Below, piece after piece: positions 3,561 to 46,823 of a DNA stretch of 64,000 nt (positions are counted from its first letter, which is position 1; each line of letters starts with the position of its first letter). Position numbers and translations under genes: made by a program. Under the pieces are notes generated by a model. The model was given only the letters and a program-made list of their open reading frames with translations. It did not search any database and was not told the DNA's origin. This DNA is from an uncultured Gammaproteobacteria bacterium (lineage in GTDB: Bacteria; Patescibacteriota; Patescibacteriia; UBA1558; 2-01-FULL-52-15): positions 316,659-380,658 of the forward strand of contig CAYOCJ010000002.1 of NCBI GenBank assembly GCA_964402565.1. The letters run 5' to 3'.

Positions 3561-3590
3561 AAGAAGCCTCCGTAAGGAGGCTTCTTAGTT
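3561..3590 (+). terminator. hairpin terminator (weak T-tract)
   Basis: aagaagcctcc-gtaa-ggaggcttctt. Confidence 0.45.
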
Positions 3591-3658
3591 TATGGAAAGA
3601 AAAAAGCACCGAGGAGGGGTTAGAACCCTCTGAACCCGGTGCTTCCATGCAGGGAAGA

Positions 3659-3955
3659 TCAGCGTGCGGAAAGTGCCGCCGTCGCGTCGACGATGGGGGC
3701 GGTCTTCGGCGCCCTCAGAACCTTCTTGATGAAGTAGGTTCGATTGTTGGGGCCGGGGATCCTGCCTCTCACGCCATGGACGTGAACGTACTCGCCTTCC
3801 CGGCGGTTCACGATCGCTTTCGCGATCTGACCTCCTGAGGAATTGGCGGTGTACTCGCCGTGGTCCCCTCCGACGCGGGAATCGGTCGTGAAGTAGTGAC
3901 ACTCCACGATGTCAACGCGGTCGCCTTCGCGCACCATCTTGCCCAATTTGTGCAT
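3659..3955 (-). CDS. small hypothetical protein encoded in a GC-rich islet
   Basis: An internal Met (MHKLGKM...) gives about 99 aa. Local GC is visibly higher than in the flanking hup and dnaG. No motif recognised. Confidence 0.35.
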   Translation of the reverse strand: MHKLGKMVREGDRVDIVECHYFTTDSRVGGDHGEYTANSSGGQIAKAIVNRREGEYVHVHGVRGRIPGPNNRTYFIKKVLRAPKTAPIVDATAALSAR

Positions 3956-4140
3956 CCAGCTGTCTCCTTTTTTTGGTTCGGTCGGTATAGACACGAGAAC
4001 AGAAACAAAGCGTCTGGTGCACCTCCTTGTGTTTCGGAAACGTATATAAAGATCAGAGTACAACAAGGCACTATACAATGCTGATCGCCATTTGTCAATA
4101 GTTTTTTGCATAAAACCCCAAAGGGAAGTAGAATTGCGAC

Positions 4141-5910
4141 ATGACTCCTATCGAGGAAATTAAATCAAAACTCGCCATCGAGCAGGTGATCGGGGAGTAT
4201 ATCTCATTGAAGCAATCAGGGATGAATTGGAAAGGCCTATGTCCTTTCCACCAGGAAAAGACGCCTTCATTCATGGTCAGCCAGGATAAGCAGATCTGGC
4301 ATTGCTTCGGATGTAATGAGGGCGGTGATGTCATTACCTTTGTTCAAAAGTATGAAGGCATGGAGTTCCGCGAGGCGGCCCAGCTTCTGGCACAGAAGGC
4401 TGGTGTTGTCCTGACCGGTTTCGCGGTGCCTGATCAAAGCAAGAAGAAGCAGCTTCAGGACATCAATGCGGCTGCAGAAGAGTACTATGTACGAGAGCTG
4501 AAAGGAGATTCTCAGGCAGCAAAAAAGACGAGAGACTATCTCACGAGCCGCGGCCTGACGGTCGAGACTATGCAAGGATGGAACCTGGGGCTTTCGCCTG
4601 ACTCGTGGGAAGGGTTGCTGGCCTTTTTGAAAGAAAAGAAGTACCCGGTTGTAGATATGGTAGCAGCAGGTTTGGTTATTTCGAGAGAACAGAAGTACTA
4701 TGACCGATTTCGCAGGCGATTGATGTTCCCTATCACTGATGCTCAGGGCAATGTCGTCGCTTTTACTGCCCGTACCCTCCAGTATATAGCCTATGATGAA
4801 GAAGATGCGCAGGGAAAGTACGTTAATAGCCCGGGCACACAGCTCTATAATAAAAGCCAGGTGCTCTATGGTTTTGATAAAGCTAAGCATGCGATCAAGC
4901 GCGCCGGATATGCGATCATAGTCGAGGGCAATATGGATGCCATCATGTCGCATCAGGCCGGCGTCCAAAATGTAGTAGCTGTTTCAGGCACAGCGTTAAC
5001 TCCGGATCAGCTGAAAATATTAAAACGATACACAGAAAATATTATTTTAGCGTTCGATTCCGATTCTGCTGGTTCTCAAGCAGTGTTTCGGGGAGTTACG
5101 TTAGCATGGGAGAATGACATGAATGTGAAGGTCATCGTGCTTACCGAAGGCAAGGATCCGGCCGAGATTATCCAGAAAGATCCGGCTCTCTGGAAGGAAG
5201 CGATACGTACTTCGATCGGTGTAGTGGATTTTTATATCGATGCGATATTCAAACGCGTTGATCTGAGCCGTGCGGACCACAAAAAGATCGCAGCGCAGAG
5301 GATAGTCGGCATTATCAATAAATTAAAAACGAAGATCGAACAGTCGCATTATGTGACCTTGCTCGCACAAAAACTGCAGATGCCGGAAAGCGTGCTCCAG
5401 ACTATGGTGCAGGAGCCGCAGGCAGCAGCTGAGCCTATTGCGCAAGAAACGCCCTGGTCTGATTCGAAAAAAGGGTCTGCATTTTACTCGGAACAATTGC
5501 TTTCATTTATTTTGCAATACCCGGACCTTGGCCGGGCCATCGTTGATGAGGTTGAGCAGGAGTTCCTATCGGAGGACACGAGGGACCTTTACAAGAAAAT
5601 CATACTTCAGTATACTAAGAACCAATTGTTGAACTTTCTTGAACTAAGCTCCGAGCTATCGCCAGATGAGTTGCGTCGCTGGAGCGAACTGGTTTTCCAA
5701 GGAGAGCGAAATTACGGAGCATTGCTCCCAGAACAGCGCGTACATGAACTCGAACGGTTGCGCGGTCTCGTCCTTCACGCCCATTATACGAATCAGCTTC
5801 AGGAATTAACTGAAGCGATCAAGCGTGCAGAGCAGGCCGGTGACCAGAGTAGCGTCGAAACGCTGATGCATGCCTATCATGCACTAAGCAAAAAAAGAGC
5901 GAGTAGATAG
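4141..5910 (+). CDS. dnaG: DNA primase
   Basis: CHC2 zinc finger (CPFHQEKTPSF...HCFGC) and TOPRIM (EGNMDAI, LAFDSDSAG), directly upstream of rpoD. Confidence 0.92.
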   Translation: MTPIEEIKSKLAIEQVIGEYISLKQSGMNWKGLCPFHQEKTPSFMVSQDKQIWHCFGCNEGGDVITFVQKYEGMEFREAAQLLAQKAGVVLTGFAVPDQSKKKQLQDINAAAEEYYVRELKGDSQAAKKTRDYLTSRGLTVETMQGWNLGLSPDSWEGLLAFLKEKKYPVVDMVAAGLVISREQKYYDRFRRRLMFPITDAQGNVVAFTARTLQYIAYDEEDAQGKYVNSPGTQLYNKSQVLYGFDKAKHAIKRAGYAIIVEGNMDAIMSHQAGVQNVVAVSGTALTPDQLKILKRYTENIILAFDSDSAGSQAVFRGVTLAWENDMNVKVIVLTEGKDPAEIIQKDPALWKEAIRTSIGVVDFYIDAIFKRVDLSRADHKKIAAQRIVGIINKLKTKIEQSHYVTLLAQKLQMPESVLQTMVQEPQAAAEPIAQETPWSDSKKGSAFYSEQLLSFILQYPDLGRAIVDEVEQEFLSEDTRDLYKKIILQYTKNQLLNFLELSSELSPDELRRWSELVFQGERNYGALLPEQRVHELERLRGLVLHAHYTNQLQELTEAIKRAEQAGDQSSVETLMHAYHALSKKRASR

Positions 5911-5916
5911 CACTCT

Positions 5917-7128
5917 ATGCCAAAGAAAAAGAACCCTCTCAAAAAAAAGATCGTCGCAAAGAAGAAAGCCAAGGACGCGAAATCAAAGCGTTCATCGGCA
6001 AAAAAAATTCGCAATGCCGGGCCGCGGGTCCGCTCTGTTTTGGATAAGAATGCAGTTGACCGGTTGATCGAAAAAGGCAGATCTCGAAGCTTCGTAACTG
6101 AGAATGAACTGATACGGGTTTTCGTGGAAGTCGAGGATCATATTGATGAGTTCGAGGATTTCCTCGATGATCTGGACATCATGGGAGTACAAGTTGTGTC
6201 CATGGAGGGTGGTATTTTGGACATTGGCAAAGATGATCGTACGTCCAAGGTATTTAGCGAGGCAGGCATTGCCCGCGATAAGAAGCGCATGGACCTTTCT
6301 GATATATCGGCCGACTCTATTCAGATGTATCTGCGCGAGATCGGTAAGGTGCCGCTGTTGAACCAGGAGGAAGAAGTGATTTATGCGAAGTTGAAAGAAA
6401 AGGGAGACGCTGAGGCGCGAAAAAAACTCGTTGAGTCCAACTTGCGACTCGTGGTATCAATTGCAAAGAAATTTACCGGCCGATCTCTGACCTTGCTTGA
6501 TCTAATTCAGGAAGGCAATATTGGCTTATTCCGCGCCGTTGATAAATTCGACTATCGCAAGGGGTATAAATTCTCAACCTATGCAACGTGGTGGATACGC
6601 CAGGCGATTACCCGGGCACTTGCAGACCAATCACGCACGATCCGCATTCCGGTCCACATGGTAGAAACGATCAATCGCTTCCAGCAAGTGCAGCGCAGGC
6701 TGATACAAGATCTTGGCCGTGAGCCCTTGCCTGAAGAAATCGCCGCAGAAATGGGCGAAGACCTTGACAAAATCAGGCATATCATTAAGATTTCACAGGA
6801 AACTGTTTCACTGGAGACTTCAGTCGGCGAAGATGATGAAGATTCAACGCTCGGAGATTTCATTGAAGATGAGCGGACCATTACGCCTGATCGCGTTGCG
6901 TCATTGCAGCTATTGAAGGATCATGTGTTCTCCATCATCAGAGATCTGACACCTCGCGAACAGAAAATTCTTGCCATGCGGTTCGGCCTTACTGATGGAG
7001 TCGCGCATACGCTTGAAGAAGTAGGACAGGAATTCGGCGTAACGCGCGAACGTATCCGACAGATCGAAGCGAAAGCATTGGAGCGTATACAGGTGCATCG
7101 AGACATGAAAAAGTTAAAGGACTACTAA
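5917..7128 (+). CDS. rpoD: RNA polymerase sigma factor sigma-70
   Basis: Regions 1.2 ([11 protein letters not shown]), 2 ([11 protein letters not shown]...[32 protein letters not shown]) and 4 (LTPREQKIL...TLEEVG). Lys-rich N-terminus. Confidence 0.93.
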
Positions 7129-7149
7129 TCCGCCAGCCGGCGGATTCGT

Positions 7150-7268: not shown

Positions 7269-7345
7269 GGCGGGGTAGCTCAGTCGGTTAGAGCGTGGGA
7301 CTCATAAGCCCGAGGTCGGCGGTTCGATTCCGCCCCCCGCTACCA
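7269..7345 (+). tRNA. tRNA-Met (CAT), second copy (elongator/initiator/Ile2 not resolved)
   Basis: GGCGGGG-TA-GCTC-AGTCGGTTA-GAGC...CTCATAA loop...GGCGG-TTCGATT-CCGCC-CCCCGCT-A-CCA, with a G1-U72 wobble. Confidence 0.8.
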
Positions 7346-7468
7346 AATCAGCCCTTAGGGTTGTTTTTTGTTAATATTGACAAAAACATAAAAAAGTGTT
7401 ACTATTGAATGTTCAAAACTTGAACCTGTTATTTCACAAAACGCATCATAGTGCGTGGGGGGTATATC

Positions 7469-8347
7469 ATGCGAGACGACGGAAAGATCTTTCGCCAGGA
7501 TGGAAAGACGATCGTCCAGATCCAGGGGCATAGCAGCCTCGGTTCGCTGCCGGGCGTTCGCTGTCTGGATCCGGAGGCCGAGGAAGAAAAGCGCATCTAC
7601 GAGAAGGTCTTCATCAAGAAGAAGGTCTACCTTCCCGGCGAGTATGACCAAGCAGTCAGCGAACAGCTGAAAGGCAAGGACATCGTCGTCCTGGGCATGA
7701 ACGGCTACAGCGGCTTGTCCGACGAGCTGTGCGCGGCCTGGGGCGTCAAGCCCGGAGGATATGAGGCTGCGTGTGCGGCCATCCTTCGGTCAACGACCAA
7801 GCTGCTTCAGGCGAAGTTCCCGGGTGTCGACATTCGCTTCGCACACGGCGCCTCGGACTTGGGAGTCGATCGGGCGATCATCGAGGTTGCCAACGGTTTG
7901 AATCGACCTCAGCTCGGGCACAGTTGTCCGCACTTCATGTTCTACGTCGAAGACGATGACATCCCGGTCTACGTCGCCAAGGACCAGGCTGCGTATTCGC
8001 TCGCGTTCATTTCGTCGCTCGACATCCTGATCGCTGCCAACGGCAGGATCCAGTCGTTCGAGCACGATATCGACGCAGCCTTCAAGAAGTTGAAGCATGT
8101 CATTCCGGTGAATGTGCTGCGCAGCATCTCGACCAACGGTGGTCCGCCGGCAGTCGGTCCTGACGGCAAGATCAACGATGCGGTCGCCGCCTTCGAGCAG
8201 CACGTGCATCTTGTGTCCCAGCACTTCGGTTCGTTGAATTACAATTCGGCGAACATGTTCCCGAGCCTCGTCGAACACGTCAACGTGGTCGTCGAGCACA
8301 TCGGGCGGCAAATCCTGTCGCCTGATCGTGCGTTCGCAGCATTCTGA
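7469..8347 (+). CDS. SLOG / DprA-like Rossmann-fold protein (hypothetical), GC-rich islet gene 1
   Basis: RBS gggggtatatc-ATG. The motifs HGASDLGVDRAIIEVANG and FISSLDILIAANGRIQS resemble the DprA/SLOG GxxxGxD...A and SxL...A...S signatures. No DprA C-terminal winged helix is seen. Confidence 0.45.
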   Translation: MRDDGKIFRQDGKTIVQIQGHSSLGSLPGVRCLDPEAEEEKRIYEKVFIKKKVYLPGEYDQAVSEQLKGKDIVVLGMNGYSGLSDELCAAWGVKPGGYEAACAAILRSTTKLLQAKFPGVDIRFAHGASDLGVDRAIIEVANGLNRPQLGHSCPHFMFYVEDDDIPVYVAKDQAAYSLAFISSLDILIAANGRIQSFEHDIDAAFKKLKHVIPVNVLRSISTNGGPPAVGPDGKINDAVAAFEQHVHLVSQHFGSLNYNSANMFPSLVEHVNVVVEHIGRQILSPDRAFAAF

Positions 8348-8411
8348 CCCTCTACGAATTCCTCGAACGGGATCGACGGTCATACCACAACCAAGGATAA
8401 AGGAGAAGTGC

Positions 8412-8873
8412 ATGAGAATCGCGATGATCTCGTACAACATGTTCGTGATCCGCGAGGCGAACGGCTGGAAAACCAACGGCGACAATGCCGTTCTGCTGCT
8501 GCAGAACACGTCGGGCAAGACGTGGGGCCTGACTCAGTTCGGCCTCACGCCCCGCGAATGGTCGAATGAGGCCGGCGCCATCGTTGACCCGCTGTGGAAG
8601 CAGCTCGAAAGCGAGCTGCCGACGATCGAGAAGGTCGTCTTCTACGTCGGGAGCGACGGAGCAGAGCGGGTCATCGAGCTCGCCGCGGATCATGGCCTCA
8701 CGCCTGACCGTGCCGTCTTCGTCTGCTGCAGCTGCAATGCTCGCACCAAGAGGGAGGTGATCAGTTCCCGCGGATTTTCCGGGTCGCCGATCCTCCACGC
8801 GGTCTGCGGCGGACACGACGAGATGCGTAACATCTACAACAACGTTCTCAACCACGGTAACCTCTCGAGCTGA
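8412..8873 (+). CDS. hypothetical protein, GC-rich islet gene 2
   Basis: RBS aaggagaagtgc-ATG. 154 aa. Co-directional, 64 nt after the SLOG-like gene. Confidence 0.5.
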   Translation: MRIAMISYNMFVIREANGWKTNGDNAVLLLQNTSGKTWGLTQFGLTPREWSNEAGAIVDPLWKQLESELPTIEKVVFYVGSDGAERVIELAADHGLTPDRAVFVCCSCNARTKREVISSRGFSGSPILHAVCGGHDEMRNIYNNVLNHGNLSS

Positions 8874-8929
8874 TCGAGGGGACGCCAACACGAGGAGCCC
8901 CGTGCCAGACTAATAATCTGCGCGGGGCT

Positions 8930-9277
8930 CTAAACATTTTTTTCAAGAAATTCTTTGAGCAGCTTTCGATGGCAATAGCCATCTTTTTTGCAATGGCAGA
9001 GTAAGGTCAGGGTATTGTAGCAACTTTCCTCATAGAGACTTTCGAGCAACGGTTGCAGTTTCTTGTTCTCTAATTGCTTTAGATATTCTTCTTTGAACAA
9101 TTCCCAGCTGTATTTGGTTCCTTTCCAATTCGCCATGAGTTCAAGCGGGCTTCCGAGCTCGCGAAACCATGCATCCACCTTTGCTTCGCGGGAGGCATCC
9201 GGCCAATAGTAACTTACCAGGATGCGCTTGCCATCGCGCTCGTTGATCGCCTCAGATAACGATTTTATTTGCAGCAT
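8930..9277 (-). CDS. DUF488-family protein
   Basis: The W..GKISWEEF...PVTLLCxCK...HCHR-like pattern (WKGTKYSWELF...LTLLCHCKKDGYCHRKLL). An internal Met start avoids overlap with the divergent gene. Confidence 0.6.
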   Translation of the reverse strand: MLQIKSLSEAINERDGKRILVSYYWPDASREAKVDAWFRELGSPLELMANWKGTKYSWELFKEEYLKQLENKKLQPLLESLYEESCYNTLTLLCHCKKDGYCHRKLLKEFLEKNV

Positions 9278-9340: not shown

Positions 9341-10234
9341 ATGAAAAAGTATTTGCGATCTCGGAACGTCTGGCTGCAGGTAAGCTTGGTCGCTCTTGCA
9401 TTGGTTATCGTCTACAGCATCATCGGCCTCTACGGCGCACAACCGAAAACAAAAACGCCTGCCGGCATGCCGGTTTCAGCGACGATTTATCCGGTCTATG
9501 ATCTGGTCCGCCGTGTCGGCGGCGAAAAAGTGAATGTGCAATTACTGCTGCCTGAGGGCGATGGCCCGGATGTCTTGACGAGTCTGTATAATGGCGTTGA
9601 CCTGAGCAAGAGCCGTGCACTTTTCGCCGTTGGTTTGAATTATGATACCGCAGGTCTTCCGCCAGACCAGACGTCAAAGCTCACGACCTTGGATAAGGAT
9701 ATCAACGTATTACTGGAACAAGGCTCGGTAGGCAGTCCGTATTACTGGTTATCAGTCCGTAACGCTGAACAGATGACAAAGACCATTGCAGACAAGCTCG
9801 CTGAACTTGATCCTGGCTCGAAGGACTATTACATGAAACAGCGCGATATTGTTATTGAACAGCTCTCCGCGATCGATACAGAAATAGCATCCCTGCTCGC
9901 CAAAGTTCCAAGAAAGTCTCTGGTTATCTATGGCTATGATTGGGGCTACTTCGCGCAGGATTATGGTTTAGATATTGCAGCCTATGAACCCGCAGGCGAT
10001 ATCAGCGAAGCGCGGGTCGAGGAATTGAGAAAGACAATGAGCGATAATGGCTTGATCGCTATTTTCTCTGACATCAGATTATCGCCGACTGCGTTCTTGC
10101 CGGCAATGAGCAAGAAGTATTTTTCAGTGTATAACCTCGATGTGTACGGCGGGGTTGAGGATAGGAAAAGCTATGACCTTACCATGGCGTATAATGCGAA
10201 AACCATATACCAGGGCCTGACCGGCGCACCCTAG
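9341..10234 (+). CDS. metal ABC-transporter substrate-binding protein-like (TroA/ZnuA fold), N-terminal membrane anchor
   Basis: N-terminal TM/signal segment. PVYDLVRRVGGEKVNVQLLLPEG... resembles ZnuA/TroA cluster-9 substrate-binding proteins. No cognate permease or ATPase is adjacent. Confidence 0.45.
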   Translation: MKKYLRSRNVWLQVSLVALALVIVYSIIGLYGAQPKTKTPAGMPVSATIYPVYDLVRRVGGEKVNVQLLLPEGDGPDVLTSLYNGVDLSKSRALFAVGLNYDTAGLPPDQTSKLTTLDKDINVLLEQGSVGSPYYWLSVRNAEQMTKTIADKLAELDPGSKDYYMKQRDIVIEQLSAIDTEIASLLAKVPRKSLVIYGYDWGYFAQDYGLDIAAYEPAGDISEARVEELRKTMSDNGLIAIFSDIRLSPTAFLPAMSKKYFSVYNLDVYGGVEDRKSYDLTMAYNAKTIYQGLTGAP

Positions 10235-13357: not shown

Positions 13358-13712
13358 GGGTATAGTATACGAGATTATTGTATTAGTTGCGAGGTTATCT
13401 GGCGGTGAGTAGCCTTTAAGTAGATATTGACAAAAAGCTAATATTATGGTATTATACTAATATTAGCATAAAGTTCCTTTAAATAAGTCTAGTCTTGCAA
13501 CTAGCTGGCATCAAAGCCTTTCTCCAACCTGTCATGGGTCGCGGAAAGGTCATGCGCCCCATACAAACTTTGGGCGCTCGCCAGAGCCGATGCGCATCTT
13601 TCTAGATACGACCGGCTCTCCGATTTTCGCTCCGCGAAACATCGGAGCTGCTTGCAATACTAGACATCCTAGTCAAAACTTCCAGCGCCTAGGGCGCTTC
13701 AAGGGGACTCCC

Positions 13713-14093
13713 ATGGGACAGGAACTTTTCATGTTCAGTTACGGAACCGCAGCGATCATCGTCGGGTGCATTCTCGGTATGGCGCTCGTCGCTTCGCCGA
13801 AGAAGCCCGTGCCGAACAAAGCGATCGTATTCACTGCCGCTGCATGCGCCGGAGCTGTGATCCAGGCGATCTTGCTCCATCGGTGGCAACACTCATCGTC
13901 CAGCTTCTTCATCAACCATGATCTCACACGCGGCGGTGAGTACCTCTACTACGCCTGGTTCGCGCACCTCACCCTCATCGTGGCCACATTCGTGGTCTCG
14001 TTGCTGGTGACGTACATCGGCGCGTACATGTCGATGATCTCGTCGTACAGCAAACAGTCGGACGCCCATCGTCGTCCCAACACTTTCCTCTAA
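13713..14093 (+). CDS. small membrane protein (hypothetical), GC-rich islet
   Basis: RBS aaggggactccc-ATG at MGQELFMF. 3-4 TM segments. The ORF-track N-terminal extension lacks an RBS. Confidence 0.45.
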   Translation: MGQELFMFSYGTAAIIVGCILGMALVASPKKPVPNKAIVFTAAACAGAVIQAILLHRWQHSSSSFFINHDLTRGGEYLYYAWFAHLTLIVATFVVSLLVTYIGAYMSMISSYSKQSDAHRRPNTFL

Positions 14094-14103
14094 GGAGAAT
14101 GTC

Positions 14104-14334
14104 ATGCGATTCAACCGAATCATCATGACCTTCCTGTTCGGAGGGAGCAGGGAGTCTCGGCCTTTCGACAATCCCAACAAGCGCCTCTACGATGAGGTCG
14201 CGATCGCGACGGAACGCAGCGCCGAGCTGCAACTCTTGCTCGGAACCGGGCGCTTTGGTTTCACCTTCGGCCGTGATCGTAGGGAAATCGAGAACGGCAT
14301 GCGGCCGATCGTGAGAGGTGGCAATGCAAACTAG
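14104..14334 (+). CDS. small hypothetical protein, GC-rich islet
   Basis: RBS ggagaatgtc-ATG. 76 aa. Followed by a strong terminator. Confidence 0.4.
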   Translation: MRFNRIIMTFLFGGSRESRPFDNPNKRLYDEVAIATERSAELQLLLGTGRFGFTFGRDRREIENGMRPIVRGGNAN

Positions 14335-14354
14335 GAAATGCCCTTCGGGGTACG

Positions 14355-14398
14355 GCGGGCTTCAGTGGTTCTCACTGGATGACCCGCCTTTTTGTTTC
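14355..14398 (+). terminator. rho-independent terminator
   Basis: ggcgggcttcagtgg...cactggatgacccgcc followed by tttttgtttc. Confidence 0.65.
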
Positions 14399-14399
14399 T

Positions 14400-14906
14400 C
14401 TAATTTTTGACATAGAGATACAGCTTCCCTTGTTGAACCTCTGGCTTCCAGGTAGGAAATGGATATCGATTCACGACAACTCGAGAGCCTGGTTTCAATT
14501 CCTTTTGTAATTTTTCTTCTAGACGCTTCATGATATACGGAATGCCAAAGATCGTAATGACAGTGTATTTAGAAAAATCATGATTCCAGGTAGAGCCTCT
14601 CATGATATGAATTTTTGAACGAAGTTTTTTTGGTATTCGCATCTTGCTCCAAATAACAAGAAAAGGGTTAATTTCAATTCCATACGCTTCAGCTCCGGTC
14701 TCAGCTAATGCATAGACCAGTCTGCCGTCGCCAGAACCAATGTCGATAGCTTGTTCGCCTGGTTTGACGGCAGCGAGGTTGATAATCCCCGCTAAGCCGC
14801 TTTGTTTGGTTGGAGCGAAAGGGGCGCCAGTAAAAAACGTTGGTAAAAAAGTAAAAATAAAAGCACTCATCAAGACGATCAAAACAAGGTCGAGTATCAT
14901 TTCCAT
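14400..14906 (-). CDS. class I SAM-dependent methyltransferase with N-terminal TM helix
   Basis: IDIGSGDGRLV (motif I) and VITIFGIP (post-I). The start is trimmed to MEMILDL; upstream ORF-track residues are likely non-coding. Confidence 0.7.
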   Translation of the reverse strand: MEMILDLVLIVLMSAFIFTFLPTFFTGAPFAPTKQSGLAGIINLAAVKPGEQAIDIGSGDGRLVYALAETGAEAYGIEINPFLVIWSKMRIPKKLRSKIHIMRGSTWNHDFSKYTVITIFGIPYIMKRLEEKLQKELKPGSRVVVNRYPFPTWKPEVQQGKLYLYVKN

Positions 14907-14979
14907 GTGCCTAGTATAAGGCATTTCAGTGAATTCGCAACCAGGTTCACTTTTTTTGATGCTCAGGTATACTGCATGC

Positions 14980-23271: not shown

Positions 23272-23365
23272 AACAGCAAATAGTATACGCCTCTTGATGG
23301 AAAAAACAAGAGAAAAAAGAGAAAGCACCCCGGTGAAGGAGTGCTTTCGCGTCATGTTGAGGGTA

Positions 23366-26446: not shown

Positions 26447-26447
26447 C

Positions 26448-27872: not shown

Positions 27873-27947
27873 GTAGTCTGACCCAATGGCGGCGACCCTG
27901 AGAGAAATCGAAGGGTCGCCGCATACGACTCTTCTAAGGAGAGATCC

Positions 27948-31035: not shown

Positions 31036-31088
31036 CCAGGTAGCCAGAGCGGGGAAACTCGCTCTGGCGCCTATCCTAAGGAGTAGGA

Positions 31089-32354: not shown

Positions 32355-32355
32355 C

Positions 32356-33000: not shown

Positions 33001-33001
33001 C

Positions 33002-34624
33002 ATGGGCCCTTCACTTCAAGAGAAGCCTCGAGCGATCGAGGCAGAGAAAGACAACCACGGAGCGCTCTACTGGTTCGCCAGGCGAGTGCTCGGAGGAGTT
33101 GGTCGCTTCTACGGCCGTCACTGGTTCGCAGGAACGATCTTCCTCGTACTGTTTGTCGGAATCACGTTCTGGCTGCGGCCTCTCTACCAGCCCTATGTGC
33201 TGGGGGTCCGCAAGTTCAGCTTCCTGGTTCCGCTCTTCGCGCCGATCGCCTTCTTCCTTTCATGGGCGGTCCGCAAGCGCTCACTGCACTTCAAGATCCT
33301 GATCTGGGCGGTCATCATCGCCCTGATCGGCGGTGCCTGGAAGTGGGAGTCGGGCGCCTACCACTACTGCAAGCTCTACCTCAGATATCGGGATCTCCCG
33401 AAGACAGAGCTCACGCAGTTGCCGCTTACTGATCATGAGCGGATCCAGCCACTGCACTCGGTGTATACGCAGGCGCTGGAGAACATGACGGATGTCGAAC
33501 GGCCGACACGGTTCGACTTCGTCCGGATCGGTGACGAGTATCACTTCACTGCCGCGATCGAGCCAGCAAAGTCGATCAGGCAGACTGTGGGATCGATCAC
33601 CGAACTCCTGTCAGTTCCTGGTACGGTTCCGGCGGCGAATTTCGCTCCCGAGAGTCGTATCAAAGTTCATTTCAATGAAGGCGAGACGATGTACTTGTCG
33701 CACAATATCTTCACTTCCGTGCGGCGAGCATTCAGCCCCTCGCTCTTCTGGTCCTATGAGCCATCCGATGTCTTCCGCGTCCAGAACGACAAGGGAGAAT
33801 GGGTACAAGTCGTATCGCTCATCCACTGGACCGGCATCCTGTTCCCGCGTCCGGAGTTCGGCGGAGTGTATATCGTGCCGCAAGCTGATAGCTCGCCGGC
33901 CGAAGCGCTTCGCAGGACGCTCTGGGGCAGCGGGACATGGGTTCCACCGGAACGTCTGGCTGAGCATCCGTTTCTCATCGGCCAGAACACGGTCGCGTTC
34001 GACATCAGTCGTTTCGCGGCAGAAAGCTTCCGGTTCCAATACGGCTTCTGGGCTCCTGCTCCCGGGTATCACTACAACGACATTCGCATTCCGGAGTTAC
34101 CCGGTGATCAGAACGCCATGCCGTATACCTGTTTCTTCCGTCTCAGCGAGGCGAAGGGGCAAGACAAGCTCTATCAGTACTTCGCCATGGAGCCTTACGA
34201 CGCTGACAAGCAGGGTCTGACGCTTTCGATCTTTTACCCTGCTGACGGCATCGGCTCTGTCTACTACTATCGGCACAATGAACGCGGAGGAGTCGTATCC
34301 GGCGTCTCGGCCATCGCCGCTAAGGTGATGGAATCCAAGAAGCAATACGACTGGACGCGACATCGGCCGGTGGAACACCTGCCCTACATCAAGGACATGG
34401 CTGGAGGCCGACGCTTCTTCTGGAAAACGACGGTCATCACGATGAAAGACCCGATCGTCGACGCCAAGGGGAACAAGGACTCTACCCAGTTCTACATCGC
34501 GGGCACGGTGCCGGAGATCGTCTTCACCGACACCGTCACGAAAATGCCTACTTGGGTCGACTCGCATCACCCGGAAACGTGGGCACAAGACCTCGAAACC
34601 CAGATGAAAGATATCTGGAAGTAG
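33002..34624 (+). CDS. membrane-anchored protein with large extracytoplasmic domain, 540 aa (island gene G)
   Basis: TGAcATG coupling to gene F. Three N-terminal TM segments, then about 420 aa rich in aromatic residues. Confidence 0.65.
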   Translation: MGPSLQEKPRAIEAEKDNHGALYWFARRVLGGVGRFYGRHWFAGTIFLVLFVGITFWLRPLYQPYVLGVRKFSFLVPLFAPIAFFLSWAVRKRSLHFKILIWAVIIALIGGAWKWESGAYHYCKLYLRYRDLPKTELTQLPLTDHERIQPLHSVYTQALENMTDVERPTRFDFVRIGDEYHFTAAIEPAKSIRQTVGSITELLSVPGTVPAANFAPESRIKVHFNEGETMYLSHNIFTSVRRAFSPSLFWSYEPSDVFRVQNDKGEWVQVVSLIHWTGILFPRPEFGGVYIVPQADSSPAEALRRTLWGSGTWVPPERLAEHPFLIGQNTVAFDISRFAAESFRFQYGFWAPAPGYHYNDIRIPELPGDQNAMPYTCFFRLSEAKGQDKLYQYFAMEPYDADKQGLTLSIFYPADGIGSVYYYRHNERGGVVSGVSAIAAKVMESKKQYDWTRHRPVEHLPYIKDMAGGRRFFWKTTVITMKDPIVDAKGNKDSTQFYIAGTVPEIVFTDTVTKMPTWVDSHHPETWAQDLETQMKDIWK

Positions 34625-34790
34625 AGGCACAATTCGCACCTTCAATAATAAGCGCATGAAGCGCGGCGGGATCCAAACTTGGGTCCCGCTTTTTCTTTTC
34701 CAGTACTTGACAAAATCTATAATTTACAGTACTCTATCAAGTTCACATTTAAACAGAAAATCGTCCTTTCCCAAGAAAGGGGAGTGCCAG

Positions 34791-36059
34791 ATGATCGAGT
34801 TTATCAGCAGATACGTATCGGTCCTGGGCCTCCCGCAAAGCTATGCCCAGGCGCTGACTCATGTCATCGCCGTTTTGTTCGTTGCGGCTTTGAGCTTCCT
34901 GTCCAATCTGGTCGCGAAACGGATCATCGTTCGGGTCATGAATTTCATTGTCAGCCGGACGAAGAACCAGTGGGACGACGTGCTCGCCAAGTGGAAAGTG
35001 TTCACCAGGCTCTCGCATCTCGTACCGGTTCTGGTGATCTGGTATCTCGCACCTCAGGCGATTCCGCCATCATCATTTCTCGAGTCGCTCATCGAGCGCG
35101 CTGTCGGCCTGTACGTCGTATGGGTAAGCGTTTCGATCATGTGGGCGGTTACCAATGCTGTCCGCGATGTATACGACCGCTATCCGATCTCGAAACGGAT
35201 CGGCATCACGAGCTTTATCCAGACGGCGAGGATCCTGCTGGTCATTCTGGCCAGCATCCTGTCGCTGTCGATCGCGCTCGCAAAGCCGTTCGGAGTTTTG
35301 ATCGGCGGCATCATCGCGTCCGCTGCGGTCTTCGCGCTGCTCTTGCGCGAACCGATCCAGAATTTCGGAGCCAGTCTGTGGATCGTCTCTCATCAACTCG
35401 TCCGCAAGGGCGAACGGATCGAGATCCAAAGCTGCCAGGTGGATGGCGAGGTCGTCGAGATCAGCCTTCACACCATCGTCGTTCGTCAGAATGACATGAC
35501 GCTGAAAGCGTTTCCTACCTACAAGCTCCTGAGCGAGGGCGTGAAGAACTGGCGCGGCATCACTTCAGCCGGAGGACGGCGGATCCAGCGTTCGATCTGG
35601 ATCGACATGGGAACCATCAAATTCCTCAGTGGCGACGCGCTTGTCCGCCTCGAACAGATCCCGCTCTTGAAACCGTATTTGGATACAGAGCTCGAAGCCT
35701 CGATGCACAGATCGGAGAAAGGAGTCGCGCCGGCTCAACCGTTCGTACATGGTTTTGCCCTGACGAACACGAGCCTGTTCCGTATCTACGTCGACCTGTA
35801 CCTGCGCCAACATCCCGGCATTCATCAAGTGCATACGATTCTGGTGCGCCAGCTGCAGCCGAAAGAATGCGGCTTGCCCATCGAGATCTATGCGGCCACG
35901 AATACGACCGACTGGCCGGAGCACGAGCGCATTCAGGCGGAGATCTTCGATCATCTGCTTGCGGCGCTTCCGTACTTCGAGCTCAGGGTGTACCAGGGAA
36001 TCTCGGGTGCGGATGTGGCGCGTGCCGCACTTGCTTCTGCCGAGATAGAGCGGAAATAG
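34791..36059 (+). CDS. mechanosensitive ion channel, MscS family (island gene H)
   Basis: RBS aaaggggagtgccag-ATG. MscS pore helix plus beta-domain signature (FGVLIGGIIASAAVFALLLREPIQNFGASLWIV...GERIEI...GEVVEISLHTIVVRQNDMTLKAFPTYKLLSEGVKNW). Confidence 0.85.
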   Translation: MIEFISRYVSVLGLPQSYAQALTHVIAVLFVAALSFLSNLVAKRIIVRVMNFIVSRTKNQWDDVLAKWKVFTRLSHLVPVLVIWYLAPQAIPPSSFLESLIERAVGLYVVWVSVSIMWAVTNAVRDVYDRYPISKRIGITSFIQTARILLVILASILSLSIALAKPFGVLIGGIIASAAVFALLLREPIQNFGASLWIVSHQLVRKGERIEIQSCQVDGEVVEISLHTIVVRQNDMTLKAFPTYKLLSEGVKNWRGITSAGGRRIQRSIWIDMGTIKFLSGDALVRLEQIPLLKPYLDTELEASMHRSEKGVAPAQPFVHGFALTNTSLFRIYVDLYLRQHPGIHQVHTILVRQLQPKECGLPIEIYAATNTTDWPEHERIQAEIFDHLLAALPYFELRVYQGISGADVARAALASAEIERK

Positions 36060-36068
36060 GAGACAGTC

Positions 36069-36311
36069 ATGCTCATGTTCTGCGGCATTTTCTGCTTCAG
36101 CATCGTGGTCATCGGATACTTCGCGTGGCGCTGGAAAGAGCCCGCATGGAATATCCCGGTAGCAGCGCTGCTCGTTGCACTCGGCGTTGAGTTCGGGATC
36201 TGGCTCGATAGCAAGAGCTCGATCCTGTTCTTGGTCTTCGCTGCACTCTGCATCGCTGGCGGCTTCTGGTGCCTCAAGCCTCAAATCCGCCCGCCGACCA
36301 CCCCGCGTTAA
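36069..36311 (+). CDS. small 2-TM membrane protein (island gene I)
   Basis: RBS ggagacagtc-ATG. 80 aa. Confidence 0.5.
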   Translation: MLMFCGIFCFSIVVIGYFAWRWKEPAWNIPVAALLVALGVEFGIWLDSKSSILFLVFAALCIAGGFWCLKPQIRPPTTPR

Positions 36312-36366
36312 CGATCAAAGCCGCCTGGGAGTACAGAAACCTTTCACCTGCCTCAAGGAGGGCACA

Positions 36367-36726
36367 ATGACCGATCCGAATGAACGCAGACAGAAGATGA
36401 AGGACGATCTCGCGAGCCTCTTCGGCGGAGCCAAAGCCGAGCTCAAGCACTTCGTCGACAAGGCGGAGGGGCACATCGACCGGGTGGTCGATGGAGCCAG
36501 GGAGCTTCACGAGGACTTCCACGCCGATCCGGAGGTCAAGCGCTTCAAGCGTAGGTTTAAATCCGGCCTGGCGAGTCTGGGCAAGAAGTTGGTGCACAAG
36601 CACGGCACCAAGGCGGAGAGCGAGGCTCTGCACAGGGCGAATCGCAAGAAGAAGGTGAAGGAAAGTCAGACGCCTCCGTCGGAACCCCCGGCGTCGCCTC
36701 AGACGCCGCCCGAGTCCGGCAGCTAG
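36367..36726 (+). CDS. small basic Lys-rich protein with Pro-rich tail (island gene J)
   Basis: RBS caaggagggcaca-ATG. 119 aa. The ORF-track N-terminal extension has no RBS. Confidence 0.5.
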   Translation: MTDPNERRQKMKDDLASLFGGAKAELKHFVDKAEGHIDRVVDGARELHEDFHADPEVKRFKRRFKSGLASLGKKLVHKHGTKAESEALHRANRKKKVKESQTPPSEPPASPQTPPESGS

Positions 36727-36976
36727 ACTCATCGTTCATTGCATCAATCGATCCGCGAGGATCGCGTCATCCTGAAATGGATGGGAACCCGCTGGTACGC
36801 CAGTCGATAAGGGTTCCTTTTTATTTTTAATACCATTGACTTTTTTAACTCTTTTTGGTACTTTTCGCTGTCTTCTTTTGTCCATTAACATCGTGTTTTG
36901 AGAAACAACTGAAAGGGGGTGTTACAGTTAATTTCGGCGCCGGTATGGTAGTTTTTCCACGAGCGGAGAAAAAGAT

Positions 36977-37234
36977 GTGACAAGAGCAGATACTCCTACT
37001 GAAGCGCGCGTCCATGACGTGATTAACGGTAAGCACGGTTTTTTTGCTGTAACAGTAGATGAATCCGGCAAGATCGAAGGCTCGATCACGGTCTCGCTTG
37101 AAGAGAAAGACAATGTCTGGCTCGAAGCAAGGCATCCAAAGCGAGGTGAAATACTCCTGCTGGAGGACATCACCACAAAGCCTGCCGGATGGCGGGCTGG
37201 TCAGGCACGGTTCCTTCGTCCGACTGATCGGTAG
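36977..37234 (+). CDS. small hypothetical protein, GTG start, in a lower-GC patch inside the island (gene K)
   Basis: ggagaaaaagat-GTG. 85 aa. Preceded by the CATTGACTTTT...TTTTTGGTAC motif. Confidence 0.4.
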   Translation: MTRADTPTEARVHDVINGKHGFFAVTVDESGKIEGSITVSLEEKDNVWLEARHPKRGEILLLEDITTKPAGWRAGQARFLRPTDR

Positions 37235-37298
37235 TTCCCACATGCTATTCCGGCATGTGGACAGCAACTAGCATCGAGAAAACAGAAGGAGTTGGATC

Positions 37299-38090
37299 TT
37301 GGACGACAACAACGAAATCCGAAGGCAGAAGTTGGCCGCCATCTTCAGATGGGGGCTGGGTCTTGTCGGTGCTGCGATCATCTCGCCTGTCGTTTTTTTG
37401 GCGGTGAAAGGCATCGTCGGGCTTGCGCTGGCAGTCGGCATCGGTTTCGCGGTCATTCAACTCGCGCCGGTCGTTGCGATGAAGCTCGCCAATTGGCGTA
37501 TGAAGCTCATCATCGACGAAGCCGAGAAGAATCCGATCGAGACCCTGCGCAACGAAACGCTCGACGCTGCCAAAGCTATCGACAGCAAAGACCAAGAGCT
37601 CGAAGACTGGGATACCGAGCTTCGGACATACGACGACGAACTCGTCAGCATCAAGCGGGATTATCCGGATGAGGCTGCCTCTTTCGAGCGCGTCAGCGAG
37701 GAGATGCATACTGGTCTGACGCAGGCTCGTGAGGAACAACAGCGTGCCCGTTGGGATCTCGAAGAAGCGAAGCGAACCGTCGACAAGATGGAGCGTCTCT
37801 ACAAAATGGCGCTCGCCGCACAACGGGTCAAGAGCTTCTCGAAGACCGCAGAAGAGGCGGTCATGGCTGACATCAGGCAGAAGGCAGCCATGGATTCTGT
37901 GCGCACCAATCTGAACCGGTCGCTTTCGCAGCTCAACACTGCGATGGCGAAACGGGCTGCCCGCCCCGCATTGACGGTTGCAGGAATGGGCCGGCAAGCG
38001 CTTGGCGCTGGTCGTCCCGCTACGATCGACATGTCCACTGATGCGAATCCCGCGAAGGTTCCGGTTCCGCGCGTTCGCGATAAGGAGTGA
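37299..38090 (+). CDS. membrane-anchored coiled-coil protein (island gene L), TTG start
   Basis: gaaggagttggatc-TTG. Two N-terminal TM helices, then a charged helical region. Confidence 0.55.
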   Translation: MDDNNEIRRQKLAAIFRWGLGLVGAAIISPVVFLAVKGIVGLALAVGIGFAVIQLAPVVAMKLANWRMKLIIDEAEKNPIETLRNETLDAAKAIDSKDQELEDWDTELRTYDDELVSIKRDYPDEAASFERVSEEMHTGLTQAREEQQRARWDLEEAKRTVDKMERLYKMALAAQRVKSFSKTAEEAVMADIRQKAAMDSVRTNLNRSLSQLNTAMAKRAARPALTVAGMGRQALGAGRPATIDMSTDANPAKVPVPRVRDKE

Positions 38091-38092
38091 AC

Positions 38093-38227
38093 GTGGGAAA
38101 CAAAAAGTATCGCATCGGCATCACGTTGCTCCTGCTCCTCATCCTGTTCCTCTGTTACGTCTACATCCAGAGCAATTCGCAGTCGTCCGATCCTCAGCAA
38201 GACGAACAAGGCATTCGGCTCCACTGA
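38093..38227 (+). CDS. possible 44-aa hydrophobic micro-protein (not in the ORF track)
   Basis: GTG 5 nt after the AAGGAG that overlaps the stop of gene L. Reads VGNKKYRIGITLLLLLILFLCYVYIQ..., a single TM. Confidence 0.3.
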   Translation: MGNKKYRIGITLLLLLILFLCYVYIQSNSQSSDPQQDEQGIRLH

Positions 38228-38258
38228 GCTGATCACACTGAACAAGGAGACCAACGAA

Positions 38259-39203
38259 ATGAACCTGAGCAAGTCCATCAATCGCATCATGTTCGCCCTG
38301 GCGCTGGTCTGCGTCTCGACGCAGCTCTTCGCGCAGACCCCGTTCAAGGTTGCGTCCAACTCGTCGAGCGGCACGTACGACAGGATGCTCGGCGAGATCA
38401 TTGCCGTCTGCAACAGCGACGAGCTGGAGATCGTGAGCGCTGACGTGAAGGGCGGGGCTGTCGGCAACCTGGACGCGCTCTACAACAACAAGGTGAACGC
38501 CGCGTTCATGCATTCCGACGTGTTCATGTCGAGTGCACAGGCCGACCCGAATTACAACCGATTCCAGACCTTGGTCGCGCTCTATCCCGAGCCGATCCAC
38601 GTGTTGGCGCTGAAGGTATCGAAGACCACGGAGAACGGCGCGCTTCACTGGGGGAAGGCTGCCTTCGGCAGTCTTGCGGAGACCAAGGGCTACAAGGTCG
38701 GTGCAGCAGGTGGCGGTGTCGTGACCGCCAGAATCTTGCAAGGGCAAGGTGAAGGCGGTTTCAGCGTCGTGCCATACAATGACGGCAATGAAGTCATTGC
38801 CGCGCTCGACAAGGGCGAGATCGCTGCGGCGATTTTCGTTGGAGCAGCTCCGCTGCCGAACCTGGAAAAACTGGATAAGCAGAAGTACAAGCTCATCCCG
38901 ATCGGCGCAACGATCGAGAACAAGGTCCAGGGCGTGTATCGTCCGGCCTCGGTGAATTACCCGGGCCTGACAAGCGGCCCGCTGCACACACTCGCGCCCA
39001 TGGCCACGCTCATGACCAAGAAGTACACCACGCCGGCCATGATCGACATGCAGCGCAAGTTCAGGGATTGCTTCAATACCCACCTGGGTGAGCTGAAGGA
39101 CGGCCATTCGCCGAACTGGGAATTCGTCGAGGCCGGCGATCACGGCGTACTCACCTGGTACGAGATCCCGCCTGCAGGTCCTGCGGCTCCCAAGAAGAAG
39201 TAA
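38259..39203 (+). CDS. periplasmic solute-binding protein (TAXI-TRAP / PBP2-like fold), secreted (island gene M)
   Basis: Signal peptide MNLSKSINRIMFALALVCVSTQLFAQ. G-rich binding-protein pattern (GAAGGGVVTARILQG...). No transporter partner nearby. Confidence 0.5.
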   Translation: MNLSKSINRIMFALALVCVSTQLFAQTPFKVASNSSSGTYDRMLGEIIAVCNSDELEIVSADVKGGAVGNLDALYNNKVNAAFMHSDVFMSSAQADPNYNRFQTLVALYPEPIHVLALKVSKTTENGALHWGKAAFGSLAETKGYKVGAAGGGVVTARILQGQGEGGFSVVPYNDGNEVIAALDKGEIAAAIFVGAAPLPNLEKLDKQKYKLIPIGATIENKVQGVYRPASVNYPGLTSGPLHTLAPMATLMTKKYTTPAMIDMQRKFRDCFNTHLGELKDGHSPNWEFVEAGDHGVLTWYEIPPAGPAAPKKK

Positions 39204-42742: not shown

Positions 42743-42744
42743 TT

Positions 42745-45219: not shown

Positions 45220-45480
45220 CCAAAAAATTAATTGGAAAATGTATTAGAAATTCTTTTGCATTTCGGTTTTAAATAACCTGATACTGTACATAAAAGAAGC
45301 TAACTTGTCAATGCACCTGGCGGTATATAATGTCTGATTATTTTTTCTTGGCGCCGAATTGTGGTGGAAGTTAGGAATGCAATTGTTAATTAAAGTGTTA
45401 TAGGGAAGTACGTTTGACAATACACCTCTCGATTGGTAATTTTATCCATTGCCAATACACGCAAATAAGGGAGGGTTGGT

Positions 45481-46119
45481 ATGAGTTGGCCGAAACGAAT
45501 TGTCCTTTTACGTCACGGGGAGTCCGAGGGGAACATTCGGTCGTCAGACGATATTTCTTTTGAAGATAAAGCAAACCATGCGTTTGCGCTTACTGAGAAA
45601 GGCCGGGAGCAAGCTCGAACCGCGGGCATGCGTTTACGCGGAGGATGGCCGGAGTTTGACTCATACTTCTGTTCAACCTTTCAGCGAACACAAGAGACAT
45701 TGTCTCTCGCCTACCCTTCAGCAATACCTGTCATTGATTCTCGGCTCAACGAGCTATGGCGCGGCATTTGGCATACGATGTCGCGTGAAAAAGTCCTGGA
45801 GCTATATCCCGAAGAATCTCGAATACGGGAACGTGAGGGCGAGTACCACTACCGTCCTCCTGGGGGCCAAAGCTGCCAGGACGTTGAACTGATGATCTAC
45901 TCCTTTCTGCTGAGTCTGCGGGCCGACTACGCTGGCAAGAACGTCCTCATCTCGGCTCATGGTAATTGGATGTTGCTCTTTTGGAGAATTGTTTGCAATC
46001 GTTCGCCGATTGCATTCGAGTCTCGCTACAAAGGAGATAAGTACAAAAATTGCGCGATTGCTGAGTACGATGGAACTTCGGCAGGCATCACGCTTATTAG
46101 AGAGGGTGTTCTGCCTTAG
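45481..46119 (+). CDS. histidine-phosphatase superfamily (phosphoglycerate-mutase-like) protein
   Basis: LLRHGESEGN catalytic RHG motif and a later His (ISAHGNW). Confidence 0.85.
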   Translation: MSWPKRIVLLRHGESEGNIRSSDDISFEDKANHAFALTEKGREQARTAGMRLRGGWPEFDSYFCSTFQRTQETLSLAYPSAIPVIDSRLNELWRGIWHTMSREKVLELYPEESRIREREGEYHYRPPGGQSCQDVELMIYSFLLSLRADYAGKNVLISAHGNWMLLFWRIVCNRSPIAFESRYKGDKYKNCAIAEYDGTSAGITLIREGVLP

Positions 46120-46274
46120 CTTTAATAGCTTGTGCCGGGACTTGTCCGACTGTCACCAAGAGCCGCGTTACCGTGTAATTGCTTTATCGGAGCGCGGCTT
46201 TTTCTTTTTACAAAATAAAAAAAGACAGCCCGAGCGCAAAGCCCGAGCTGCCGATCCTGTGGACTGAAACGGAG

Positions 46275-46574
46275 CTACCCGTTTCCTTGCAGGGACATAA
46301 CCAGTCCCTGAACGCCAATCTGGAGTTTTCCCAGGATATAGCGAGTCCAGCCAGGCTTCGGGGGCACTTCGATTTCAAGTGTCCCCGCGACCGCACGCAT
46401 GATGCATTCGAGTGATCGCGCGTGCGGATACTTGGTTTCCCTTGTATCGCCCGCCAATTCACCTTGCAGTGTGCGCGCAAGAGACGTGATCGCCTCTTTG
46501 CCGAGTCCCTTCCTTTTCAGTTGGGAAAGGGCTCGTTCAAGTTCCACCTGAAATTGAAAGATCCGGTCATCCAT
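46275..46574 (-). CDS. small hypothetical protein on a GC-rich patch
   Basis: About 100 aa from the internal Met MDDRIF. The sequence ...EIEVPPKPGW... is faintly HicB/RHH-like but not assignable. Confidence 0.35.
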   Translation of the reverse strand: MDDRIFQFQVELERALSQLKRKGLGKEAITSLARTLQGELAGDTRETKYPHARSLECIMRAVAGTLEIEVPPKPGWTRYILGKLQIGVQGLVMSLQGNG

Positions 46575-46823
46575 GCGATGTTCTCCTTGTGATAGGAATG
46601 GATGTGCCCGAATACCCAAGCAATTTGGGTTCCAGGTTAACAGCGCATAATATAGCTTTTCTAGGAAAAGTCAACTCTATATGAATCCTAACTTCACTGT
46701 TGTATTCAATAAACATTGACTTTTCGGTACTTTTTTGGTACGGTCGAAAGTCTTTTTGATGTTCATTGACAACCGTCTGTGCGGTTGTCTCCAACCATTC
46801 TGGACACCCTGAGGAGGGAGATA

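Follow-up and report, generated by a model that had tools for sequence, protein, structure and literature searches.

The window analysed here, a 64,000-nt stretch of contig CAYOCJ010000002.1, is a contiguous piece of the chromosome of a Komeilibacteria-like member of the Patescibacteria (candidate phyla radiation, CPR), and GC-rich islets of one or two genes each lie between its core genes. Three of these islets (islets 1–3) are real and are likely to be recently gained, foreign-looking inserts, with the slots in which they lie acting as hot spots of gene turnover, whereas islet 4 stands apart. They display a compositional break with the surrounding backbone, are contiguous with it, are absent or replaced in relatives, consist mostly of ORFans (genes without recognisable homologues), and have intact coding and expression signals. 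By what means CPR bacteria, with genomes so tiny and streamlined, come by new functions is an active question. The genes concerned are listed below; the original prediction, which had described an open reading frame (ORF) of roughly 99 aa, a membrane protein with a 76-aa protein, a 2-oxoglutarate (2OG)-oxygenase-like gene beside pyk, and an ORF of roughly 100 aa before a helicase gene, was accurate on all four counts.

3659–3955, minus strand: islet 1 cargo gene, a 98-aa ORFan between hup and dnaG, also called by Logan
13713–14093, plus strand: gene a of the islet 2 cargo, an ORFan of 126 aa with about three transmembrane helices (167 aa if read from the ATG at 13590), also called by Logan
14104–14334, plus strand: gene b of the islet 2 cargo, an ORFan of 76 aa (69 aa according to Logan), GC3 0.74, with an AAGGAG Shine–Dalgarno (SD) motif
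23366–24151, minus strand: islet 3 cargo gene, a 261-aa 2OG-Fe(II) oxygenase beside pyk, with an AGGAGG SD motif
46275–46574, minus strand: islet 4 gene, a 99-aa helical protein (MDDRIF...) of a conserved uncharacterised family

Composition and contiguity of the islets

The whole window has a GC content of 51.4%, with a bimodal distribution. The backbone (38,030 nt) has a GC content of 47.6% and genes with a GC content at third codon positions (GC3) of 0.51 ± 0.05, whereas the GC-rich blocks at 7.4–8.9, 26.3–39.2 and 55.3–64 kb (the big islands) are near 58% GC and their genes have a GC3 of 0.75 ± 0.05; about 40% of the window is GC-rich. The islet intervals were taken over as originally predicted and compared with backbone windows of equal length. 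Islet 1 (GC 0.596, z 3.5), islet 2 (GC 0.566, z 3.7) and islet 3 (GC 0.566, z 3.7) all exceeded every such window (0 as high of 3545, 3174 and 3181, respectively); islet 4 (GC 0.545, z 2.1) was matched by 0.17% of backbone windows and lay under the backbone maximum of 0.560. A two-state hidden Markov model (HMM) of GC content called islands at 3618–3943, 13561–14367 and 23392–24065, with maximum posteriors of 0.99–1.00, and left islet 4 uncalled (maximum posterior 0.19). The tetranucleotide log-likelihoods of islets 1–3 were above those of all backbone windows, with islet 1 at the big-island mean. Codon usage was scored as a log-likelihood ratio per codon between an island and a backbone model, which gave −0.30 ± 0.11 for backbone genes and +0.23 ± 0.10 for island genes. 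The islet 1 gene scored +0.29 (GC3 0.78), genes a and b of islet 2 scored +0.25 (GC3 0.76) and +0.21 (GC3 0.74), and the islet 3 gene was intermediate, at +0.06 (GC3 0.64). The score of −0.13 for the islet 4 gene falls in the backbone tail, and its GC3 of 0.54 lies within the backbone range (0.40–0.62). Islets 1–3 are real compositional outliers and match the big islands. Four GC-rich micro-islets had been claimed: window statistics, the HMM and codon usage bear out the first three, but not islet 4 (GC3 0.54–0.58, posterior ≤0.19). The segmentation of GC, GC3 and tetranucleotide content that had been proposed as a check gave a similarly divided answer; islets 1–3 surfaced with the HMM and the window scans, but islet 4 did not, and recursive binary segmentation of GC content, run with a strict threshold, returned the large blocks only.

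A chimeric assembly had been put forward as the alternative to acquisition. The source contig as deposited has a length of 512,989 bp, and two Logan contigs bear on its continuity. One, of 3,287 bp (SRR12313479), is 100% identical to window 3488–6774, across hup, islet 1 and dnaG; the other, of 37 kb (SRR12313480) and recorded in two samples, is 100% identical to window 13366–34151 over the 20.8 kb compared, and runs through islets 2 and 3 and across the left border of the 13-kb big island. Identical contigs thus cross both junctions of each of islets 1, 2 and 3, for which chimerism is effectively excluded.

The slots and their cargo

The closest relatives of the DnaG protein of the window are found in Candidatus Komeilibacteria and other metagenome-assembled genomes (MAGs) of Patescibacteria. 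The top relative, on CAYRBH010000004.1 (assembly GCA_964422585.1, hereafter the sister), has 81% amino-acid identity, and the next, Komeilibacteria RIFCSPHIGHO2_01_FULL_52_14, has 60%; a search of JGI metagenomes with DnaG for additional close relatives returned the known Rifle Komeilibacteria contig only. Three loci of the sister (L002, L061 and L110) and a third species (L003) were used as comparators. The backbones of the window and the sister are 70–79% identical at the DNA level, with the alignment broken at four places, and the 4-fold degenerate sites of dnaG are 40% identical, which is near saturation. The elements that surround the cargo genes are as follows.

3596–3645, minus strand: slot 1 terminator, a predicted conserved hairpin with a U-run (folding z −3.7), kept in L002 with stem changes
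3655–3665 and 4049–4059, plus strand: 11-nt direct repeat AAGATCAG(C/A)GT (10/11 match), bracketing the islet 1 cargo
4070–4098, minus strand: putative slot 1 promoter, sigma-70-like, TTGACA-17-TATAGT, 11/12 consensus matches
13427–13455, plus strand: putative slot 2 promoter, TTGACA-17-TATTAT with an extended TG, 11/12 matches, −10 box conserved in L002
13487–13668, plus strand: structured RNA leader, a predicted three-way junction, with a sister copy at L002 17821–17941
14354–14397, plus strand: predicted intrinsic terminator of islet 2, read from the sequence (GGCGGGC...GACCCGCC then TTTTTGTTT)
23321–23348, minus strand: predicted terminator following islet 3; the sister equivalent comes directly after DLH

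Slot 1 lies between hup and dnaG. Its promoter is divergent from the dnaG promoter (4105–4134) and has a homologue in the sister (TTGACA-17-TATAAT, L002 9957–9929, 12/12 matches), and a similar promoter is present upstream of the L003 ORF; its terminator adjoins that of hup itself. Between them, the variable segment extends from about 3646 to 4040/4089. Window 3645–4090 cannot be aligned with the sister, which has 555 bp of GC-rich DNA with a 122-aa ORF (GC3 0.71) at this position, and L003 has an unrelated 113-aa ORF (GC3 0.79) between hup and dnaG. The three proteins (98, 122 and 113 aa) have no mutual homology according to BLASTP and Smith–Waterman scores, the latter being like those of shuffled sequences; the window and sister ORFs share a conserved TGA as their stop codon. 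The islet 1 gene (GC 0.61; GC1/2/3 = 0.60/0.46/0.78) has an AAGGAG SD motif upstream. Its product found only itself among 1.84e9 representative proteins (HMMER), forms a singleton cluster at 90% identity and has no Pfam, PHROG or PADLOC match, and its single-sequence AlphaFold2 (AF2) model is uninformative (predicted local distance difference test score, pLDDT, 33). Alternative-frame ORFs in islets 1 and 2, considered as fragments of known genes, gave no Pfam match. Both copies of the AAGATCAG(C/A)GT repeat coincide with break-points in the homology with the sister; the repeat could be a target duplication, microhomology or chance. The stem of the slot 1 terminator (GCACCGG/CCGGUGC) encloses a tRNA T-arm-like hairpin, GAGGGUUCUAACCCCUC, which gives it the look of an acceptor/T-arm minihelix, and a second T-arm-like hairpin, GAGGGUUCGAAUCCCUC, is present in the sister (L002 ~9345–9440). 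These hairpins may be what remains of a tRNA integration site.

Slot 2, between a glycosyltransferase gene and a methyltransferase gene, contains a conserved RNA leader ahead of its cargo. Segment 13456–13715 (260 nt), which includes the leader, has a minimum free energy of −96.7 kcal/mol (z −6.4), and the sister copy has a folding z of −5.8; the window copy carries a 63-nt insertion that forms two extra hairpins (~13585–13649). The two copies are 86% identical over their shared columns, as against 40% at 4-fold sites, and substitutions affect 2 of 72 paired and 14 of 44 unpaired columns (Fisher 1.8e-5), in a test that is biased toward structure, the structure having been predicted from the same two sequences. 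There was no Rfam match at the gathering threshold, and in E-value mode only radC was returned (E 0.35, opposite strand); a covariance model found no further copies in 417 kb of related loci, and no exact 22-mer of the leader was present in JGI metagenomes. The leader is a backbone element, not cargo, and the rise in GC content at 13500–13670 is due to this conserved structured RNA rather than to foreign DNA. Judging from sequence conservation and predicted folding, it is a candidate new cis-regulatory RNA. The islet 2 cargo begins near 13669; gene a (GC3 0.76) has only a weak GGGGA at the SD position. The products of both genes found only themselves among the 1.84e9 representatives (HMMER), form singleton clusters at 90% identity and have no Pfam, PHROG or PADLOC match. 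Window 13584–14406 cannot be aligned with the sister, whose slot 2 holds a 200-aa and a 129-aa ORF (GC3 0.76) together with a NUDIX gene, and no protein similarity was found between the sister ORFs and the slot 2 genes of the window.

Slot 3 separates DLH from pyk. In the sister, the pyk promoter and pyk come directly after DLH, and the ~0.9-kb 2OG segment is missing as a clean indel; in the window, the full insert extends over ~23366–24257, and a 10/13-nt repeat is found there. The gene (GC 0.58, GC3 0.64) encodes a protein assigned to Pfam PF03171 (E 7.6e-5, 23.4 bits against a cut-off of 23), without an NCBIfam or a PDB sequence-level assignment. It belongs to a family of five members, the four others having been found among 5.8e9 proteins, and the iron triad HxD...H (H174/D176/H228) and the R244-W-S (RxS) motif are invariant across all five. 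The AF2 model (pLDDT 79) has a double-stranded β-helix (DSBH) fold like that of 3on7, 3oox, T7H and EFE, with Foldseek E-values of ~1e-11 against 3on7 and 3oox. Comparison with the wider set of PF03171 oxygenases (IPNS, EFE, T7H and DAO; 3on7, 3oox, 5c3p, 6vp4) shows a shared DSBH (template modelling score 0.65–0.73), HxD...H and RxS; the identity of the islet 3 protein to solved structures does not, however, exceed 21%, and its subfamily consists of the five known members. Its relatives occur in unrelated neighbourhoods, in small-genome-looking bacteria with GC contents of 48%, 55% and 58%, where they have ambient composition; gene content suggests that these genomes are CPR. The nearest homologue (57% identity) is of ambient composition in the 48% GC genome. 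The sister pyruvate kinase gene (L061 6707–7816) is split into ORFs of 273 and 75 aa, reflecting a frameshift, a pseudogene or an assembly error.

In all three genomes, the slot ORFs have a GC3 far above their GC2, in phase with the ORF, and most have AAGGAG or GGAGG 5–9 nt upstream of the ATG, the exceptions being islet 2 gene a (weak) and the L003 ORF (none). Since the slots of the sister and L003 hold unrelated GC3-rich ORFs, GC-rich micro-islets appear to characterise the lineage, the cargo varying from genome to genome. A search for homologues of the islet proteins, another proposed check, returned self-matches only for islets 1 and 2, the five-member family for islet 3 and 13 homologues for islet 4.

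Gain, timing and rival explanations

From these observations we infer gain rather than loss, together with its timing and mechanism and such function as the ORFans may have. Timing rests on compositional-amelioration logic. The GC3 of the islets has not drifted to the host value of ~0.5 although synonymous sites are saturated, which argues for gains after the split between the window and the sister; islets 1 and 2 (GC3 0.74–0.78) look younger than this split. Islet 3 may be older or come from another source, because its GC3 is intermediate (0.64). Of the repeated acquisition from a high-GC donor suggested in the original prediction, the repeated gain of GC-rich DNA stands for islets 1–3, through their composition and their absence or replacement in the sister; the single donor does not, none having been traced.

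Accessory genes would, in the model that we propose, come from a pool near 58–60% GC (GC3 ~0.75) and enter a genome with a core of ~48% GC. Islets 1–3 would be the smallest members of this accessory class, each consisting of one or two complete genes placed in intergenic slots of resident transcription units: slot 1 is framed by a promoter and a terminator that are both conserved, slot 2 comes after a conserved promoter followed by the structured RNA leader, and slot 3 occupies the space from the DLH stop codon to a terminator. They would have arrived after the split from the nearest sequenced congener, and the slots would be hot spots of turnover, resembling replacement-type flexible islands reduced to single genes. 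The likely route would be that foreign DNA is taken up and then inserted, either illegitimately or with the help of microhomology, or else swapped in by homologous exchange via the conserved flanks. It is doubtful, though conceivable, that Komeilibacteria-type CPR bacteria possess dedicated "expression slots", in which a conserved promoter, leader and terminator bracket swappable GC-rich ORFan cargo drawn from an unsampled pool and exchanged without a recognisable recombinase. The hairpins at the slot borders (the leader at 13487–13668 and the tRNA-minihelix-like structure at 3605–3645) might themselves guide the exchange of cargo.

No integrase or transposase lies beside the four islets and they share no common junction motif; ARAGORN found no tRNA next to any of them, and the only repeats are the 10/11-nt repeat at islet 1 and the 10/13-nt repeat at islet 3. 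IMG/VR contained no relatives of the islet 1 protein, the islet 3 protein, the DUF6638 protein or the 298-aa island protein. A phage or defence origin was considered and set aside, as no islet protein had a PHROG or PADLOC match. Known non-coding RNAs (RNase P, transfer-messenger RNA, SRP and 6S) were likewise rejected as an identity for the islets, given the lack of Rfam or ARAGORN matches.

Several points weigh against recent foreign gain. The donor search yielded neither a donor lineage nor clade-nested homologues for islets 1–3, and there is no mobility gene and no consistent recombination site at the islets. The sister is distant (81% amino-acid identity for DnaG, saturated synonymous sites), which is compatible with fast in-situ divergence of an ancestral slot gene, and loss of islet 3 in the sister is formally possible, the outgroup lacking synteny. 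The libraries behind the Logan contigs may be those used for the deposited assembly, making these contigs independent assemblies but not independent data, and they provide contig-level rather than read-level evidence. A Cyt-b5-like 107-aa gene at window 21899–22222 (plus strand) is missing at the syntenic site of the sister yet has backbone composition (GC3 0.46), so not all differences in gene content are GC-rich.

One rival to gain would be that a single gene has occupied each slot from the common ancestor onward and has diverged past recognition through, for example, diversifying selection on surface or host-interaction proteins, its GC-richness being due to selection or biased gene conversion and not to a foreign source. 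We consider this unlikely. It would accommodate the conservation in the sister of the promoter, terminator and RNA leader of slots 1 and 2, the conserved TCA (TGA) that ends the slot 1 ORF in both the window and the sister, and the occupation of the hup–dnaG slot in three species; weakly constrained proteins could, moreover, lose detectable similarity where synonymous sites are saturated. However, a resident gene would be expected to have a GC3 of ~0.5, and the observed values of 0.74–0.79 are those of the big islands. Lengths and architectures also differ (98, 122 and 113 aa in slot 1; 126 + 76 vs 200 + 129 aa in slot 2), Smith–Waterman scores are indistinguishable from those of shuffles, the strong codon-position structure points to purifying selection, under which some similarity should persist, and slot 3 is empty in the sister. 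For islet 3, and possibly for others, ancestral presence followed by loss in the sister is a further reading, which we regard as distinctly improbable. There is a single close comparator, CPR genomes are prone to gene loss, and islet 3 could be older, with its intermediate GC3 and a nearest homologue (57% identity) of ambient composition in a 48% GC genome. Islet 3 is, nevertheless, still a compositional outlier (z 3.4–3.7) despite the saturation of synonymous sites, and a five-member family among 5.8e9 proteins, in unrelated contexts, has the patchy distribution typical of transfer.

The GC-rich stretches could also be structured or regulatory RNAs, with the ORFs as by-products of stop-poor, GC-rich DNA. 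This holds for the part of islet 2 formed by the conserved structured RNA at 13487–13668, and an open frame of ~100 codons would not be rare by chance at 60% GC, by our own estimate; the ORFans are without homologues, and islet 1 is without a confident AF2 fold. As a general account, it is very unlikely. There is no Rfam match, GC1, GC2 and GC3 are in phase with the ORFs, and all the window ORFs but islet 2 gene a have an SD motif; islet 3 encodes a recognisable enzyme whose active site is intact, and the cargo is not conserved between species, unlike functional RNAs. Finally, an assembler or binning procedure might have joined GC-rich pieces of another, higher-GC organism to the CPR backbone, as could be suspected from the bimodal composition, with ~40% of the window GC-rich, and from the metagenomic source of the assembly. 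Such a chimera is extremely improbable, because two contigs produced by a different assembler are 100% identical over six islet junctions and one big-island junction, and one of them was recorded in two samples. Backbone syntenic with the sister is found within a few hundred bases on both sides of the islets, the cargo genes sit on resident promoters and terminators (predicted), and the sister MAG, from another project, displays the same phenomenon.

Known systems, islet 4 and neighbouring features

Replacement-type flexible genomic islands and integration hot spots between core genes have reportedly been described by Rodriguez-Valera and colleagues and by Oliveira et al. in 2017. The hup–dnaG and glycosyltransferase–methyltransferase slots resemble such islands in having non-homologous content between conserved flanks. 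The classical islands, however, are multi-gene clusters (O-antigen, capsule, defence) that differ among strains of one species, whereas the slots contain single small ORFs between a conserved promoter and terminator, in genomes with saturated synonymous sites. A resident promoter that would express promoterless, swappable and often ORFan cargo at a fixed site is also reminiscent of integron cassettes. An integron-like or att-site model was rejected, as there is no intI among the neighbouring genes, there are no attI/attC-like repeats and no array, and the RNA/hairpin element occurs once; the resemblance, drawn by analogy, is one of architecture only.

Patescibacteria have hundreds of genomic islands and single transferred genes, accounting for up to 13% of genome length and mostly exchanged within the phylum (PMC12455944, mSystems 2025). 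The islets are similar to these in being atypical, lineage-specific accessory DNA in streamlined CPR genomes, and the islet 3 family is known only from small-genome-looking bacteria. They differ in that the units here are of 0.4–0.9 kb, with one or two genes, GC-richer than the host and mostly ORFans without a traceable donor, integrases or tRNA adjacency. The GC-rich share of ~40% is also far above the reported genome-wide fractions, although it relates to one window and not to a whole genome. The locus is a new example of a known phenomenon, because abundant islands and single-gene transfers in Patescibacteria have already been published (PMC12455944). What is unusual here is the combination of tiny inserts, GC-rich ORFan cargo, recurrent promoter–terminator slots and a conserved structured leader. 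Gene flux in these bacteria would extend down to single-gene inserts, placed for expression by resident promoters and terminators (predicted) and recurring at the same slots between core genes. The GC-rich cargo is mostly ORFan even against ~15 billion proteins, pointing to a large gene pool that has escaped sampling, such as one of mobile elements, phages or high-GC relatives not yet sampled, and GC-based contamination filters would wrongly remove such segments from CPR MAGs.

Islet 4 belongs to a family of at least 14 members, with 13 homologues in the representative search, and its mild GC elevation comes through amino-acid composition (GC1 0.65). The sister has an orthologue with an 84% identical protein, and a 464-bp module consisting of the gene and ~100 bp upstream (window 46217–46679, L110 5897–6358) is 82% identical at the DNA level, with every flanking gene differing between the two genomes. 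The module is placed after an SNF2/helicase–methyltransferase pair in the sister; in the window, the gene is divergent from a ResIII helicase gene, and large helicase-type genes adjoin the module in both. Islet 4 is a small conserved gene whose composition is that of the resident genome and which has been moved or rearranged, not a GC islet. The adjacent helicase gene (46779–49250, plus strand) encodes an 823-aa ResIII/Helicase_C protein with six HNH_repeat (PF18780) units; among PADLOC models, this protein best matches that of a type IV methyl-directed restriction enzyme (E 4e-43).

Other features lie outside the islets. The 1.6-kb island at window 7346–8940 (59–60% GC) has two genes (298 and 181 aa) without family matches and is directly 3' of tRNA-Met (7269–7345), where the sister has 67 bp; no copy of the tRNA-Met 3' end was seen at its far border. 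A sharp AT-rich trough (34% GC) at window 25601–26000 marks the left border of the 13-kb GC-rich island (26300–39191), which follows a shared EamA gene and carries DUF6638, AAA, MscS-like and other genes. The sister instead has a DUF1003–MarR–RND–MFS cluster of backbone GC content (L061 252–5076), not found in the window. It also has an additional 115-aa ORF (L061 14863–15210, GC3 0.70) between endonuclease III and a methyltransferase, the counterpart of which in the window is a segment of only ~50 bp (14906–14959). Within the GC-elevated region near the end of the window, a gene at 55899–57752 (minus strand) encodes an AAA ATPase of 617 aa that includes a proteasomal-ATPase OB domain. Along its full length, this protein matches TIGR03689, the model for the actinobacterial type of proteasome ATPase, with 357 bits against a cut-off of 505 bits, and a proteasome-type AAA ATPase is an odd gene for a CPR genome.

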